64,000 nt of DNA from Candidatus Vogelbacteria bacterium RIFOXYB1_FULL_42_16 (lineage in GTDB: Bacteria > Patescibacteriota > Minisyncoccia > Phycocordibacterales > XYD1-FULL-46-19): NCBI GenBank assembly GCA_001823055.1, contig MHTH01000005.1:34667-98666 (forward strand). The letters run 5' to 3'. Of the stretch, positions 2 to 63,570 are shown piece after piece. A program made the position numbers and the translations under genes. Below the pieces are notes generated by a model. The model was not told the origin of the DNA, did not search any database, and worked only from the letters and a program-made list of their open reading frames with translations. Position 1 is the first letter of the stretch; every line of letters begins with the position of its first letter.

Positions 2-1351
2 GGTATTGGTGGTATTGGTATGTCGGCCATTGCGCGGATGTTATTGTTGGACCCACCTTCGCAAAGCTTCGGCGAGGAGAGGAGGATAATGGGTTCTGAT
101 CGAGCCAAGAGTGTCGTGACCGAAGAATTAGAAAAACTTGGGGTCAAGATTTTTTATCAACAGGTGGCGAAAAATATTTCAGCGGATATTGATTTGGTTA
201 TTTATACCATTGCTATTTCCGAAGATAATCCAGAATTGAAAAAAGCCAGAGAATTGGGGATCGAGTGTCGAACTTATCCGGAAATGCTTGGTTTGATCTC
301 AGCCGATAAATATACGATTGCGGTGGCGGGAACGCATGGTAAAACCACGACCACAGCCATGATTGCTAAAGTTTTGATCGAGGCCAAACTTGATCCGATG
401 GTGATTGTTGGTAGCTTACTGCTCCCCGAGGGTAACCCTAGGGAAATTTCCCTAGGGTTACCCTCGGGGAAAGCCACTAATTTCATCGCCGGCCAAAGCG
501 ACTATTTTGTCGTCGAAGCTTGTGAATACAGGCGATCATTTTTAAATCTTAATCCCAAGATTGGCATTATCACCAATATTGACAGTGATCATTTGGATTA
601 CTACAAAGATCTAGCAGATATTCAATTGGCTTTTTCGGAATTTGCCAGCCGAATCCCGACAGATGGCTTTTTGATTTGCGATATCAGTGATCCATTACTA
701 TCACCAGTAATCAACCGAACCAAAGCCCAAATAATTGATTATTGTTCACTTGGAGGTTTCACCTCCAAGTTGGAATTGTTGGTCCCAGGGGAACACAATA
801 TTAAAAATGCTCAATGCGCTTTGGCTGTAGCCCAGATTTTAAATGTTGAACAGAATACGGCGATCGAAGCTTTGAAAAAATTTACTGGCACATGGCGTCG
901 CTTTGAATATAAAGGTCAAACCAAAAATGACGCTTTAGTTTATGACGATTACGCTCATCATCCGACGGAAATTAGAGCCACGATCGGTGGTGCGCGGGAA
1001 TTTATGGCCAAAAGAAATTTAATGGGGAAATTAATTATCGCTTTTCAACCCCATCTCTATAGCCGGACCAAAGCTTTAATGACTGATTTTGCCGAGGCTT
1101 TGAGTCTGGTGGACAAAGTAATGGTGGCCAAAATATATGCGGCCCGTGAACTATTTGATCCGGAGGTTAAAGAAGAAAAATTGGTGGAATTAATCAACGC
1201 TAAGGCTGGTAAAAATATCGCTAGTTTTTTCGGTGATTTTGTTTCAATTGAACAAGACTTAGAAAATGAATCAAAAGTTGGAGATTTGGTGGTCGTCATG
1301 GGTGCGGGTGATATCAACCAAGTGGCGAACAGTTTGGTGATGAAAAATTAA
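2..1351 (+). CDS. murC: UDP-N-acetylmuramate--L-alanine ligase MurC, 5'-partial (window starts inside the GIGGxGMS motif)
   Basis: Translation begins GIGGIGMSAIARML (MurC N-terminal signature). Mur ligase P-loop AGTHGKTTTT and the DHLDYY region are present. The ORF runs to the stop at 1349-1351. Confidence 0.85.
   Translation, partial: GIGGIGMSAIARMLLLDPPSQSFGEERRIMGSDRAKSVVTEELEKLGVKIFYQQVAKNISADIDLVIYTIAISEDNPELKKARELGIECRTYPEMLGLISADKYTIAVAGTHGKTTTTAMIAKVLIEAKLDPMVIVGSLLLPEGNPREISLGLPSGKATNFIAGQSDYFVVEACEYRRSFLNLNPKIGIITNIDSDHLDYYKDLADIQLAFSEFASRIPTDGFLICDISDPLLSPVINRTKAQIIDYCSLGGFTSKLELLVPGEHNIKNAQCALAVAQILNVEQNTAIEALKKFTGTWRRFEYKGQTKNDALVYDDYAHHPTEIRATIGGAREFMAKRNLMGKLIIAFQPHLYSRTKALMTDFAEALSLVDKVMVAKIYAARELFDPEVKEEKLVELINAKAGKNIASFFGDFVSIEQDLENESKVGDLVVVMGAGDINQVANSLVMKN
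423..470. repeat. Perfect 48-bp palindrome embedded in-frame in murC, encoding PEGNPREISLGLPSGK
   Basis: TCCCCGAGGGTAACCCTAGGGAAA|TTTCCCTAGGGTTACCCTCGGGGA is its own reverse complement. Its GC content is far above the local average. It occupies a position where MurC proteins normally have a shorter loop. The minus-strand ORF 274..486 reads the same peptide because of the palindrome. Confidence 0.9.
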
Positions 1352-1394: not shown

Positions 1395-1601
1395 CTAGCT
1401 TGAACTCAGGATTGGAGCCCAAGCCTGATGTAGACAGATCAGAGGTTTGTACCCGCTGTCGCTGGCCATTCGGCCAGTATCCCTTTACTGTTTGAGCAGT
1501 AATACATCTGTCGTCACAATATATCATTTATATATTTTGTCAATATTTTGTAAAGCCAGTAATTTGAATTTAACGGAACATCTGTGCTAAATTTAATCCA
1601 T

Positions 1602-3422
1602 ATGGAAAAACACCCTCTTCACCTCAAAAATCCAGAATTACAAACTTCGCCCGAAGTTGATCGGGCGGTCGAACGACAGGAGCGTCGAACCGACCAAAAA
1701 GTGCCTAATGATCCGACTGAGCGTATTGAAGCTTATCTTGACCGACTGGAGAATATTTTTCTTAATCCGGATGAAAGGAAACGCGAGCGCAATCTCGAGA
1801 TGTTTCGAGATAAAATTTATGACACTTTGGTTATCAAACCAGAACAGGTGCCTGAATCATATTTTGAACTTCAAAAACAAGTGGCTAGGGAACATGGCCA
1901 AGCGATTGAAAATATACCGCTAAATGTTCGGGACCAAATGATTGAAACGATCATTGCTGACCAGAAGCATTCTCTTGATCAGTGGATTGACTATTTGACC
2001 TCCGAAGATGTCGCTTATCCGCCTTGGTTTAAATATTTGGTCTGGCGAAATGTTATCAAACTTTCTCAATTTGATAAAACCCTCGGTAAATTCAAGGATC
2101 GCACTGAATCAACAGTGGCTCCTTATCCAGATATTTATCGCGCGCCATTAGCGAAAATTCTCGATATCTATGAGCAAGCGATCAAAGACAAAACCAATCT
2201 TAGAGATTCTGAAGTTCAAGCCAATTTCTCTAAACGTTTTGCCAAACTTTATGCCGAGCTGATTTCAGAATCTTTGGCAGTTCGTATCGAAAACAAAGAG
2301 GAAGTCAAAGGTGTCTGGGTTAAATATTCTAAAGGTAATATGGCCGAGGCCGATAAACTCTTTGAGTCAGTTCAGGCCAAAGGTACCGGCTGGTGCGTTG
2401 AAGGTCGAACGACGGCTCAAAACTATATCAAACAAGGTGATTTTTATGTCTATTACACGGAGGACAATAATGGCTTGCCGACTCAACCTCGTATGGCTAT
2501 CCAAATGAACGGAACGCAAATTGGTCAAATTCGAGGTGTTTTGAATCATCAAGAATTAGAACCGATCATGGCCGATGTTTTGGAGACCAAGCTCAAAGAA
2601 TTTGGGCCGGAGGCTGATAGTTACCAGAAGAAGAATTCTGACATGAAAAAGATGACGGCTATCGAAAAGAAGAGCCAATCGGGGATAGCGTTGTCAAAAG
2701 ACGATTTGGTATTTTTGTATGAAATCGGTGCTCCTATTGAAGGTTTTGGTTACGACCGCGACCCGCGCATTGCCGAGCTTCGCCAAGGCAGAAATCCAGA
2801 GGAAGACATGATGACTATTTTTGAATGTGCTAAAGAGCAAATTGCTCACTCAGCAGCAGAAATTGACGATGACACCATAGCCTATGTTGGTCCTTGGAAT
2901 GTTGCTGTTTATCAAATAATCAAAAAATATCCCCAGATTCAACATCTTTACGAATCTTTTCCTGATCAGAAAATTTTTATGATGACTCAGGAGACCGACC
3001 AGAGGATCAATTCTCTGGCTAAAGCCGAAGAGGTTTTGAAAGCCAAAAATATTTATATTTCAAATTGGGCGCAAGATATTTTGCAAAAAACTGATTTTAG
3101 TCGAGAAGCTAAAACTTACAAGTTGGTTCAATTTACTGTCGAACAGCTGGGTTTTAGTAGTGGTGCTACTACTGACCAAATTTATGCCAAGGCTCAAGAA
3201 TTAGGTTTAAAACTTTGCCCAGCGGAAGTTGGTCCACGACTTCGTCTTCAGTATGATGGTAAAGATTGGAAACTTATTGCCATGAAGCAGATTACCGATC
3301 GCGGTGGCCTTCCGAGTGTTTTCTACTTGCTTGCCGGCGGAGGGCAGTTGGGGCTCTACGCCGATGATGCTCATCCGGACCGCGGGTGGGGTTCGGGCCG
3401 CCGCTTCGTCTTTCTCTCGTAA
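1602..3422 (+). CDS. DGR target (variable) protein; C-terminal ~43 aa encoded by the variable repeat; N-terminal ~560 aa of unknown function, no obvious signal peptide
   Basis: Long ORF (track start 1584 is GTG; ATG at 1602 is more likely). Its last 128 nt are the VR copy of the downstream TR. The variable codons correspond to AAC/AAT codons in the TR, and the C-terminal ...RRFVFLS tail is conserved in both copies. Confidence 0.7.
   Translation: MEKHPLHLKNPELQTSPEVDRAVERQERRTDQKVPNDPTERIEAYLDRLENIFLNPDERKRERNLEMFRDKIYDTLVIKPEQVPESYFELQKQVAREHGQAIENIPLNVRDQMIETIIADQKHSLDQWIDYLTSEDVAYPPWFKYLVWRNVIKLSQFDKTLGKFKDRTESTVAPYPDIYRAPLAKILDIYEQAIKDKTNLRDSEVQANFSKRFAKLYAELISESLAVRIENKEEVKGVWVKYSKGNMAEADKLFESVQAKGTGWCVEGRTTAQNYIKQGDFYVYYTEDNNGLPTQPRMAIQMNGTQIGQIRGVLNHQELEPIMADVLETKLKEFGPEADSYQKKNSDMKKMTAIEKKSQSGIALSKDDLVFLYEIGAPIEGFGYDRDPRIAELRQGRNPEEDMMTIFECAKEQIAHSAAEIDDDTIAYVGPWNVAVYQIIKKYPQIQHLYESFPDQKIFMMTQETDQRINSLAKAEEVLKAKNIYISNWAQDILQKTDFSREAKTYKLVQFTVEQLGFSSGATTDQIYAKAQELGLKLCPAEVGPRLRLQYDGKDWKLIAMKQITDRGGLPSVFYLLAGGGQLGLYADDAHPDRGWGSGRRFVFLS
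3293..3420 (+). repeat. DGR variable repeat (VR) at the 3' end of the target gene
   Basis: Aligns base-for-base with 3739..3866. All 22 mismatches fall at positions where the TR has A (A->G/C/T in VR). The last ~20 nt are identical and GC-rich, consistent with an initiation-of-mutagenic-homing (IMH)-like 3' end. Confidence 0.85.
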
Positions 3423-3738
3423 GTCTTTAAATTTTGATCACTTTGGATTTTTTAGAGATTTTGTTTCTTCTTACCTTTGATTTTTGAAATTTTTTTTGTA
3501 AAATTATCTAGGCTTGATTGATTCAGACGGTTACGGCTTTCTGAAATCTGGCTAGTTGGCACATATTGAGAATGTAAATGGCCAAGGCTTTTTACAGAGG
3601 ATAGGCGTTTTTCTTTCAAAAAAGAAATCAACTTGGTGCGCGATACTGGCGGATTTTTGATCCCAAATAAAATACAGCTAAGCCATTTTATCTTTTTGAT
3701 AATCTGGTCGGCAGTGACACAGATGGTTTCGCGCACAA

Positions 3739-3866
3739 TACCGATCGCGATGGCAATCCGAATGTTTTCAACTTGAATGCCGACGAAGAGCAGTTGAAGC
3801 TCAACGCCAATGATGCTCATCCGGACAACAGGTGGAATTCGGACAACCGCTTCGTCTTTCTCTCGC
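3739..3866 (+). repeat. DGR template repeat (TR)
   Basis: Intergenic copy of the VR, rich in AAC/AAT (Asn) codons in the target reading frame. ORF 3773..4048 in the track is just the TR read in the target frame. A hairpin (CCGCA-tctacaggg-TGCGG) plus T-run follows at about 3875-3905. Confidence 0.85.
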
Positions 3867-3886
3867 CAGAGTCTTCTTTTCCGCAT

Positions 3887-4210
3887 CTACAGGGTGCGGT
3901 TTTTCTTTTCCAAATTATCAGAATTTTTCTTCCAACCACCGAGCATTTTGCCAATCTCTTCGAGTTTGAGGGCGATTTCTTCACATTGACGATGGGAAAT
4001 GAGTTTGGCTTCCCATGCGACCGAGATGAGAAATTTCAAAGTGTCTAATAATAAAATACAGCGGGATATTTTTTCAATTTTCTTGTCTTTGGCGGTAAAA
4101 TAAGCGACATATGACAAATCTAACAAGTCGAGAAATTTATTTTCTATTCTGGCGCCGATAGTATGGCGAGTATTTTTGGCAAGATGAGGAACGATATCAA
4201 TCCAAATCAA
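3887..4210 (-). CDS. avd: Accessory variability determinant (Avd)-like / 23S rRNA intervening-sequence four-helix-bundle family protein
   Basis: 107 aa. The C-terminal ...LEEIGKMLGGWKK matches the EEIGKML-G signature of the Avd/IVS-protein family. Size and position between TR and RT are typical, although it is on the opposite strand. Confidence 0.6.
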   Translation of the reverse strand: MIWIDIVPHLAKNTRHTIGARIENKFLDLLDLSYVAYFTAKDKKIEKISRCILLLDTLKFLISVAWEAKLISHRQCEEIALKLEEIGKMLGGWKKNSDNLEKKNRTL

Positions 4211-4220
4211 ATAACTCTCT

Positions 4221-5246
4221 TTGATACGACTAAGGATCGAAGCATCACCGAGAGAGAGAGAGAGTAAAAGGTGGTCGTGGCATAGTTACGATCATATCAT
4301 TTCTGTTGGAAATTTGCTTCAAGCTTGGCGAGAATTTTTGCGTGGCAAACGTCGACGCCAAGATGTTCAATTATTTTCGCTTCATTTGACTGATAATATT
4401 CTAGCACTACATAGAGAATTGACTCATAAAAATTACTGTCATGGGTCATATCAGGCTTTTAATATCAATGATCCAAAACCGCGTTCCATTCACAAGGCCA
4501 GTGTTCGTGATCGACTAATCCATCACGCTGTCTATCGTATTCTTTATCCATATTTTAATCAGAAATTTATCTATGATTCATATTCTTGTCGTTTAAACAA
4601 GGGGACCCATCGAGCGATAAATCGTCTACGAATTTTTGGTCGAAAAATTTCGCAAAATAACACCAGAACTGTCTGGGTGTTAAAGGGCGATATTAGGAAA
4701 TTTTTTGCTTCCATTGACCATCAAATTCTTATCAACATCTTAAAAAAACACGAACCAGACCCAGATATTATCTGGTTACTGGAGCAAGTGATTGGTAGTT
4801 TTTATACCGCTAGGCAAGGCCTAGGGTTGCCTTTGGGTAATCTGACCTCGCAACTACTAGTAAATATTTATATGAATGAGTTTGACCACTTTGTAAAAAG
4901 GAAATTGAAAGAAAAATTTTACATTCGTTATGCTGATGATTTTGTGATCTTGGGTGATAATAGAAAGGATTTATTAGAATTAATCCCAAAATTATCAAGT
5001 TTTTTGCTAGAACATCTTAAGCTTACTCTACATCCCAATAAAGTTTTTATTAAAACCTTAGCTTCTGGTGTAGATTTTCTTGGTTGGACTAATTTTCCTC
5101 ATCATCGGGTTCTAAGATTTACCACAAGAAGAAGAGTATTAAGAAAGATAAAAAAATCAAAAATGACCACCGCAACCATAGCTTCATATAAGGGCTTATT
5201 AATACACGGTAATACTTATAAACTGCGAAATCTATTTAAGCAATAA
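4221..5246 (+). CDS. DGR-type reverse transcriptase
   Basis: RT motifs present (…LIHHAVYRILYPYF…, YADDFVILG). Motif 4 reads LGNLTSQLLVNIYMNEFD, i.e. the (I/L)GxxxSQ signature that distinguishes DGR RTs from group II intron RTs (QG). The start is uncertain: the track start is TTG, only 10 nt from the divergent avd start. Confidence 0.85.
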   Translation: MIRLRIEASPRERESKRWSWHSYDHIISVGNLLQAWREFLRGKRRRQDVQLFSLHLTDNILALHRELTHKNYCHGSYQAFNINDPKPRSIHKASVRDRLIHHAVYRILYPYFNQKFIYDSYSCRLNKGTHRAINRLRIFGRKISQNNTRTVWVLKGDIRKFFASIDHQILINILKKHEPDPDIIWLLEQVIGSFYTARQGLGLPLGNLTSQLLVNIYMNEFDHFVKRKLKEKFYIRYADDFVILGDNRKDLLELIPKLSSFLLEHLKLTLHPNKVFIKTLASGVDFLGWTNFPHHRVLRFTTRRRVLRKIKKSKMTTATIASYKGLLIHGNTYKLRNLFKQ

Positions 5247-62752: not shown

Positions 62753-63388
62753 ATGAGTATAGAAATTATCCCTTCAATCGTCAGCCCTAATTTTTCTGAT
62801 TTGCAGAAGAAAATTAAATTATTGGCTGGACAGGTGGAGTGGGTGGAAATCGATGTGGCCGATGGCGTTTTTGCTACCAATCAAACTTTTCAAGAACCGG
62901 CCTTGTTAAACGAACTAGACGATCAGACTAAAATCTCGGTGCATTTGATGGTGGAAATACCAGAGACGGTCATCGAAGAATGGCTACCAGTAGCTGATCG
63001 CTTGGTGGTGCATTTGGAATCAACAGAAAATTTGGCTGATATTTTAGCTAAATACCAGAAAAACCATCAAGAAATCGTCGTGGCGCTAAATTTAGAAACG
63101 CCGGTGGAAAAAATCGCGCCCTTTGTCAAAGAAATAAAAACTGTGCAATTGATGAGTATTAAGCGTCTTGGTTTTCAGGGTGAAGATTTTTGTCCGGAAG
63201 TGTTAGAAAAAATAAAAGCGGTAAAAACTAACTGGCCGAATTTGAAAGTGGTAGTCGATGGGGGAGTAAATTTAACTAACGCCAAAGAATTAACTCAAGC
63301 CGGCGCCGATGCTTTAGTGATAGGCTCTGCGATCTGGGTAAACAAAGAACCGTTAGTAGTCTTAAAAGAATTACAGAAAATTGCTTAG
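62753..63388 (+). CDS. rpe: Ribulose-phosphate 3-epimerase
   Basis: IIPSIVSPNFSDL...VDGGVN...GSAIW motifs of Rpe TIM-barrel proteins. Confidence 0.85.
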   Translation: MSIEIIPSIVSPNFSDLQKKIKLLAGQVEWVEIDVADGVFATNQTFQEPALLNELDDQTKISVHLMVEIPETVIEEWLPVADRLVVHLESTENLADILAKYQKNHQEIVVALNLETPVEKIAPFVKEIKTVQLMSIKRLGFQGEDFCPEVLEKIKAVKTNWPNLKVVVDGGVNLTNAKELTQAGADALVIGSAIWVNKEPLVVLKELQKIA

Positions 63389-63432
63389 CTCAGTTTTGCG
63401 CGTTGATATTTTATTGCACGGATAGTCGAATA

Positions 63433-63516
63433 AATTTGTCAAAAAAACTTTCTTAATTTCAAAATGGGTGGGCTTGGACCTGGGTTTTGAAATTAAGAAA
63501 GTTTTTTTGACAAATT
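63433..63516. repeat. 84-bp perfect hairpin: 32-bp AT-rich inverted repeat arms flanking a GC-rich 20-nt loop (TGGGTGGGCTTGGACCTGGG)
   Basis: AATTTGTCAAAAAAACTTTCTTAATTTCAAAA ... TTTTGAAATTAAGAAAGTTTTTTTGACAAATT are exact reverse complements. Located between rpe and tkt. Confidence 0.85.
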
Positions 63517-63570
63517 TTGTTTGTGAGTTTTTCATATTCTCATTAGTATTTTTGAGGTATAATTAAGTGG

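Follow-up and report, generated by a model that had tools for sequence, protein, structure and literature searches.

Introduction

REPs (repetitive extragenic palindromic sequences) are short imperfect GC-rich hairpins of 20-40 nt that are extragenic by definition, that can form inverted doublets folding into one long hairpin (REPINs), and whose families flank a single Y1/HUH gene with a kept neighbourhood, coding for a REP-associated tyrosine transposase (RAYT) (PMC3116915, PMC6006769). Rickettsia palindromic elements (RPEs) are Rickettsia-specific palindromic selfish repeats of about 100-150 bp, with no known transposase, that lie in frame in unrelated housekeeping genes where the added peptide is tolerated (PMC10969869). 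Template switching has also been described to expand inverted repeats, to homogenise them and to invert their spacers (PMC8604942, PMC13100816, PMC5453318), and perfect inverted repeats of up to 284 bp lie inside functional protein genes of Nematomorpha mitochondria (PMC6649704). Here we describe a perfect 48-nt palindrome within murC in a stretch of 64,000 nt from Candidatus Vogelbacteria bacterium RIFOXYB1_FULL_42_16 (contig MHTH01000005.1), hereafter called the window. In our view this palindrome is probably a RAYT-associated REP-type hairpin present as a REPIN-like doublet, which MurC tolerates in a permissive loop.

The murC element resembles the REP/REPIN-RAYT systems in several ways. 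Its unit is a short imperfect GC-rich hairpin, its two units form an inverted doublet (24+0+24 nt, with 22+3+22 nt in loci L102/L105; L numbers denote loci and P numbers proteins of related organisms), and the unit family flanks a single Y1/HUH gene with a kept neighbourhood, in this case in other genomes (L096, L100, L102/L103/L105). It differs from REPs in being intragenic and translated, with relatives in murC and in the peptidyl-tRNA hydrolase gene pth, and from REPINs in its spacer of zero. It also departs from REP-RAYT systems in its very low copy number where copies were counted (one locus in the window, 3 units in L105) and in that no guide tetranucleotide of the GTAG/CGTC type was seen (criterion of PMC6006769, PMC3733652). 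The host, a streamlined Patescibacterium, is likewise unlike the known REP/RAYT hosts. To our knowledge, work on REP/REPIN elements has dealt almost entirely with Proteobacteria, and we found in the literature no published RAYT/REP system, intragenic palindrome or translated hairpin element in Patescibacteria or the candidate phyla radiation.

With the RPEs the murC element shares the in-frame position in unrelated housekeeping genes and the tolerated peptide, but no sequence; its unit has only 24 nt (48 nt for the doublet), it is linked to RAYT-like genes and its host is not a Rickettsia. As in the template-switch inverted repeats, one arm is the exact reverse complement of its neighbour and a second hairpin of the gene shows an inverted loop; such systems account for doubling and for perfect arms, not for the dispersal of a unit or its association with transposase genes. 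Finally, the Nematomorpha arms encode conserved protein regions, whereas the murC arms encode a non-conserved, disordered loop of a bacterial protein.

Results and discussion

A perfect palindrome in frame in murC

Window positions 423-470 are identical to their own reverse complement (TCCCCGAGGGTAACCCTAGGGAAA followed directly by TTTCCCTAGGGTTACCCTCGGGGA), with two exact arms of 24 nt and no arm mismatch. The symmetry is limited to these positions and breaks at C422 and A471. The GC content of the palindrome is 58%; that of the first 2 kb is 42%, and values over the whole window range from 33 to 49%. A search of the 64-kb window for further copies with up to 3 mismatches found none, and 0 of 100 shuffles matched; by direct calculation the chance expectation is about 64000 x 4^-24, or ~2e-10. 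For the hairpin the predicted energies are -30 kcal/mol (z = -9.9) in single-stranded DNA and, in RNA, -52 kcal/mol (z = -10.3). Each 24-nt unit in turn has an 8-bp stem (CCCGAGGG/CCCTAGGG), mismatched at one G.A pair, around a centre of 3 nt, and several sub-palindromes of 6-8 bp, such as CCTAGG and GGTNACC, can be read from the 48-mer. No direct repeat flanks the palindrome (ACTGC on the left, AAGCC on the right), so that it lacks the combination of terminal inverted repeats and target-site duplication that marks a miniature inverted-repeat transposable element (MITE); unlike a MITE with its terminal repeats, the whole murC element is one inverted repeat.

The murC frame opens at position 2 and its stop codon occupies 1349-1351. 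The encoded protein has MurC as its top PDB match (9ir5, 2e-87); in BLASTP it is 100% identical to P0001, assigned to 'Microgenomates group bacterium GW2011_GWC1_38_12', and its nearest relatives are from Candidatus Vogelbacteria / Paceibacterota. The palindrome begins at codon position 2 and codes for L-PEGNPREISLGLPSG-K, 16 residues in the loop. Reading of the sequence indicates that only one of the three frames across the palindrome is free of stops and that this is the frame used by murC. The element can persist since, with a length divisible by three and its sole stop-free frame in phase, it adds just 16 loop residues. An antisense open reading frame (ORF; 274-486) carries the identical peptide because palindromy gives it automatically. 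The palindrome-encoded loop is 12-14 residues longer than in solved MurC structures, which are gapped there. In an AlphaFold2 (AF2) model of the window MurC with a mean predicted local distance difference test score (pLDDT) of 89.5, values below 50 occur only at residues 157-167 (NPREISLGLPS, encoded by the palindrome) and 32-36 (another inserted loop). The palindrome probably sits in a permissive, disordered loop of the MurC central domain. An earlier note, made on this DNA from its letters only, had described a perfect, self-complementary, GC-rich palindrome of 48 bp, in frame in murC with a length divisible by three, located in a loop that is shorter in other MurC proteins and encoding the same peptide on the antisense strand; our data bear out each of these points, the last of which holds for any palindrome. 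The extra copies of the 48-mer and the artefact that it had wanted to be looked for did not turn up, the former in the 64-kb window and the latter among public contigs.

For the latter we fetched seven of the 18 contigs on record (ENA, NCBI, JGI), and all seven carry the identical 48-mer. Library chimeras, for example by fold-back, can yield palindromes. These contigs, however, come from different samples and archives, their names follow the conventions of different assemblers, and the murC frame runs seamlessly from the palindrome into conserved MurC motifs. The presence of the 48-mer in seven independently assembled contigs therefore excludes an assembly artefact, and we regard an artefact of sequencing as practically out of the question too. 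Compared with each of the seven public contigs, the window has three transitions in a stretch of 16 nt (1147, 1152 and 1162), one of which turns Pro to Leu in AAREPFDPE; they are probably a strain variant.

A unit shared with orthologues and its inverted copy

The earlier note had also called for an alignment of MurC orthologues. Among 31 MurC homologues the loop that holds the palindrome (after VGSLL and before NFIAG) varies strongly in its inserts, as do three other loops. At the same murC site L008 (P0004, ~70% nucleotide identity) has a perfect 25-nt palindrome, TTTCCCCAGGGT-g-ACCCTGGGGAAA, encoding FPQGDPGEK; in P0006 the site holds CCCCAGGGTGACCCTGGGG together with further sequence, and in L010 (P0003) it is free of any palindrome. 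In register, 20 of the 25 bases of window positions 422-446 agree with the L008 element (TTTCCCCAGGGTGACCCTGGGGAAA), and the codon alignment leaves a clean 24-nt gap opposite 447-470 with both flanks in register. This indicates that the 48-mer consists of a unit shared with orthologues (Unit A) and its exact inverted copy (Unit B). While the ~24-25 nt of the former are common, in register, to P0004-P0006, the second arm, with its 24 nt or 8 codons, belongs to the window lineage alone and is missing from the single-unit orthologues. The idea that the 48 bp had been inserted as one piece thus holds only for the lineage-specific second arm and fails for Unit A. The 24-nt change may be either a gain in the window lineage or a loss in L008.

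The closest relative, P0002 (76% identity), has a short loop without the element, and in the clade of P0003-P0007 (88-95% core identity) the elements in each of three loops differ from protein to protein. Loop elements therefore turn over fast. Either the insertion and loss of elements or recombination among populations that occur together could underlie this turnover. Sliding nucleotide identity between the window and L008/L010 has a local peak just 3' of the element, in a stretch that is a conserved motif anyway.

Such an arrangement could in principle have a purely local origin, in which template switching at a quasi-palindrome built the element without any transposase and its likeness to sequences elsewhere is convergence of GC-rich stems. 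The second arm is indeed the exact reverse complement of the adjoining 24 nt, L008 lacks exactly these 24 nt, and their removal restores the L008 register, which is the signature of an inverted duplication. A second in-frame hairpin of murC also speaks for this mechanism. It lies at window positions 748-770 (ACTTGGAGGT-ttc-ACCTCCAAGT, peptide LGGFTSK), and at the corresponding site L014 (10751-10771; MurC 56% identical) carries an identical stem around an inverted 3-nt loop (gaa instead of ttc). Inversions of this kind are attributed to template switching between the arms of inverted repeats (PMC8604942), and this one points either to such an inversion of the spacer or to an insertion that went in the other way round.

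A further insert lies in the N-terminal loop of murC (window 56-77, peptide PPSQSFGEERR). It is GC-rich and weakly palindromic (CCTTCGCAAAGCTTCGGCGAGG), it is found nearly exactly in L010 (P0003) and is replaced by other elements in 88-95%-identical sisters, and it matches the second low-confidence segment of the AF2 model (residues 32-36).

The unit recurs in other genes

A hairpin family, CCC[CG]AGGG-N3-CCCT[AG]GGG, includes the 19-22 nt unit CCCGAGGG-TAA-CCCTAGGG(AAA). Scanning metagenomes for CCCSAGGGTRACCCTRGGGAAA gave loci of three kinds, namely murC orthologues, a peptidyl-tRNA hydrolase gene and L096; the counts are lower bounds because the source contigs of the window (e.g. Ga0209210_1000171) were not returned although they contain the pattern. 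The 25-mer of the L008 murC is identical in pth (L092/L094/L095), where it is read in another frame (VSPGSPWGK) and lies in a 14-residue loop insertion that solved Pth structures do not have. Since murC and pth translate the same DNA in different frames, the peptide is not the thing that is conserved. In L096 the unit CCCCAGGG-TAA-CCCTAGGG-AAA, equal to the window unit at 23 of 25 positions, overlaps the final 8 codons of an ORF that resembles Y1 transposase genes. A scan of viral contigs for the unit gave one match, in DNA of 59% GC with no related context, which we judged to be due to chance.

These copies do not fit well with a purely local origin. Template switching copies nearby sequence, and it leaves unexplained both the 25-mer identical in murC and pth and the arm motifs found beside three different RAYT-like genes (see below). 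We therefore think it rather unlikely that template switching made the whole element, whereas it may well account for the doubling step on its own. The proposal that the palindrome is a miniature insertion element tolerated in an essential gene, which the earlier note had made, is supported by the presence of the unit in murC, in pth and beside RAYT-like genes.

Its other proposal, that of a function at the DNA level such as a recombination site or a cluster of restriction sites, found no support. More generally the palindrome might be under selection as an mRNA hairpin for murC translation or stability, as a binding or recombination site, as a restriction-site cluster or as a useful loop, and the very stable RNA structure predicted (z = -10), the sub-palindromes and the identity of the sequence in all contigs of the population would agree with this. 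The element is, however, missing in the closest orthologue P0002 and variable within the 88-95%-identical clade, murC and pth read it in different frames, no Rfam family matches at gathering thresholds anywhere in the window (a tRNA scan of the window was likewise empty), no T-run follows the palindrome on either strand, and the loop has low confidence in the AF2 model. A selected function thus appears very improbable to us.

RAYT-like genes flanked by hairpins of the same family

Four RAYT-like genes were fetched from other Patescibacteria. Family-specific hairpins lie directly beside each of them, and in the three genes for which both flanks were seen they lie on both. In L100, CCCGAGGG-CCA-CCCTAGAG-AAA starts 1 nt past the stop codon of P0242. 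In L102/L103/L105 a single unit, CCCGAGGG-CCG-CCCTAGGG, is found 6 nt past the stop of P0275, and ~130 nt 5' of this gene lies ATCCCGAGGGCCGCCCTAGGAA-caa-TTCCTAGGGCGGCCCTCGGGAT, a perfect hairpin of 47 nt (22+3+22; seen in L102/L105) that is a doublet with the arm motifs of the window palindrome. The same two 8-nt arm motifs directly adjoin three different RAYT-like genes. All 3 units in the 11.8 kb of L105 are beside the RAYT-like gene. The RAYT-like genes of L079/L074, L101, L104, L106 and L030 are each flanked by a hairpin family of their own, and the L030 hairpin also occurs in frame in the murC of L018. The flanks of the hairpin units (TT, TC or AT on the 5' side and AAA on the 3' side) merely extend the palindrome.

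The L096 ORF has a YIHLNPVK motif, and its homologues (~54% identity) are proteins of 180-190 residues with the HUH motif NHFH and the tyrosine motif YIHLNP. Pfam gave no match for this truncated ORF or for the L030 protein, so that the identity of both rests on homologues. The Pfam domain Y1_Tnp scored above its cutoff of 23 bits in P0275 (42 bits) and L079 (46.5 bits). In NCBIfam, REP_Tyr_transpos was the only significant match of the RAYT-like proteins (E 1e-8 to 2e-18), with the exception of a marginal IS200 match in L079 (E 0.015). A profile search with four RAYT-like proteins gave thousands of Patescibacterial homologues, and none among the best 120 matches was named as coming from the organism of the window.

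Autonomous insertion sequences (IS) of the IS200/IS605 type have hairpins at both ends. The hairpins described here could accordingly be the subterminal ends of such elements, and the murC copy a stranded end or a PATE/MITE-like derivative. That hairpins stand at both ends of the genes and that the genes carry the IS200-like Y1_Tnp domain of Pfam would be expected from this, but NCBIfam matches the REP-associated tyrosine transposase, with the IS200 model giving nothing or E 0.015 at best. Furthermore, a DUF1360 gene lies 3' of the RAYT-like gene in L096, L102/L105 and L106 despite different hairpin variants or families, and a gene for a peptidoglycan-binding protein lies 5' of it in L102 and L105. 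The neighbours being kept amid differing hairpin families, a vertically inherited single-copy gene fits better than a hopping IS, and we consider an IS200/IS605 origin improbable.

How the murC doublet may have formed

Our favoured explanation is that of a REPIN-like doublet of a REP-type hairpin. Two inverted, abutting units of ~24 nt from the family CCC[CG]AGGG-N3-CCCT[AG]GGG(AAA) would form the murC doublet, and this non-coding selfish DNA would have landed in, or been copied into, the permissive MurC loop. By analogy with the proposals made for REP/REPIN-RAYT systems, the units could be moved as single-stranded hairpins by a RAYT-like Y1 enzyme. The arms are identical to each other yet the unit differs from that of L008 at 5 of 25 positions, which suggests that the arms were made or homogenised recently. 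The second arm may have come from inverted duplication, or arm homogenisation, by a replication template switch acting on a single unit already in place; that the doublet arrived recently in finished form, like the one beside P0275, is equally possible. The insert would be neutral or slightly deleterious to murC and not functional.

Several observations weigh against this explanation. The unit family is low-copy wherever it could be counted (3 in L105, three kinds of loci in metagenomes), and the 64-kb window has neither a second copy of the unit nor a RAYT-like gene. No transposition intermediates and no empty-site alleles of the window strain were seen. An asymmetric guide tetranucleotide of the GTAG/CGTC type is not visible at the foot of the hairpins, and the RAYT-like proteins score 35-67 bits, under the equivalog cutoff of 80 of NCBIfam REP_Tyr_transpos. 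In addition, L008 and L010 differ over a tract that reaches ~25 nt past the palindrome, and homologous recombination among co-occurring populations, instead of repeated insertion, could account for the patchy occurrence among orthologues.

Hairpins in other insertions of Patescibacteria

Hairpins scoring at least 8 were found in 24% of 45 lineage-specific MurC insert segments (82 genomes), against 0.2% of 900 control segments of the same length drawn from the same murC genes. In 1.24 Mb of related loci we observed 65 GC-rich perfect hairpins where ~7 were expected, and in a closely similar scan 48 of 68 such hairpins fell within ORFs that were 100 residues or longer. Another, second family is based on the 16-bp perfect palindrome TCCGCCAGCTGGCGGA, which contains CAGCTG and encodes the peptide NPPAGG. 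It is present in several Paceibacteria genomes, where it recurs in frame in two different murC loops, in a MurD-like ligase gene adjoining murC and in other genes (Table 1); the 64-kb window has no copy.

These data lead us to propose, tentatively and with less than even confidence, that Patescibacteria (Paceibacteria) may carry undescribed low-copy RAYT-REP systems whose hairpins land time and again in frame in surface loops of essential housekeeping enzymes, among them MurC, MurD and Pth. Were this the case, selfish hairpin DNA would be a systematic source of lineage-specific loop insertions in Patescibacteria proteins, and long, perfect palindromes with no spacer would be stably tolerated in their genomes. 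If the link to RAYT is real, RAYT-associated hairpin elements would extend to ultra-small groundwater bacteria. Hairpin elements would also be translatable within essential enzymes, in parallel with the larger RPEs, here with a candidate for the moving enzyme. Some of the odd Pro/Gly-rich loop insertions of Patescibacteria proteins would thereby have an account at the DNA level, and the loci would offer natural test cases of how much hairpin structure can be borne by an essential gene, both as mRNA and during replication.

Table 1 Coordinates of the murC palindrome, of a second palindrome family in related loci and of neighbouring features. Positions are those of the window unless a locus is named.
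Feature	Position	Strand	Description
murC (UDP-N-acetylmuramate--L-alanine ligase)	2-1351	+	Pfam Mur_ligase, Mur_ligase_M, Mur_ligase_C; PDB match; 5' end cut by window start
Perfect 48-nt palindrome, probable REPIN-like doublet	423-470	.	Two inverted 24-nt units; codes for PEGNPREISLGLPSG in MurC loop
Unit A	423-446	+	Core CCCGAGGG-TAA-CCCTAGGG-AAA; imperfect hairpin, one G.A mismatch
Unit B	447-470	-	Exact reverse complement of Unit A; 8 codons, ISLGLPSG
TCCGCCAGCTGGCGGA sites	L008 2680-2695; L009 998-1013, 3096-3111, 4047-4062		Also in L018, L030, L049, L093 and others
Variable region	3287-3419		C-terminus of 612-aa ORF (1584-3422)
Template region	3733-3865		82% identical to variable region
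bAvd-like gene	3887-4210	-	
Reverse transcriptase	4221-5246		

Other features of the window and its surroundings

Six other perfect GC-rich hairpins of the window (at 1371, 33838, 47740, 50426, 53935 and 61148) are found between genes, shortly past stop codons; we therefore read them as terminator-like and not as the same phenomenon. Much longer than these is an AT-rich perfect inverted repeat at 63432-63517, with arms of 33 nt and a spacer of 20 nt, just past an ORF ending at 63388.

Outside the window, a few kb 5' of murC, the source contigs L001-L005 carry at ~157-801 a gene for a LAGLIDADG homing-endonuclease-like protein of 199 residues, which precedes the MurD-like ligase gene that is itself 5' of murC. 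On its other side murC is adjoined by a diversity-generating retroelement (1584-5246; Table 1), in which 23 of the 24 mismatches between the variable and the template region are at template adenines.

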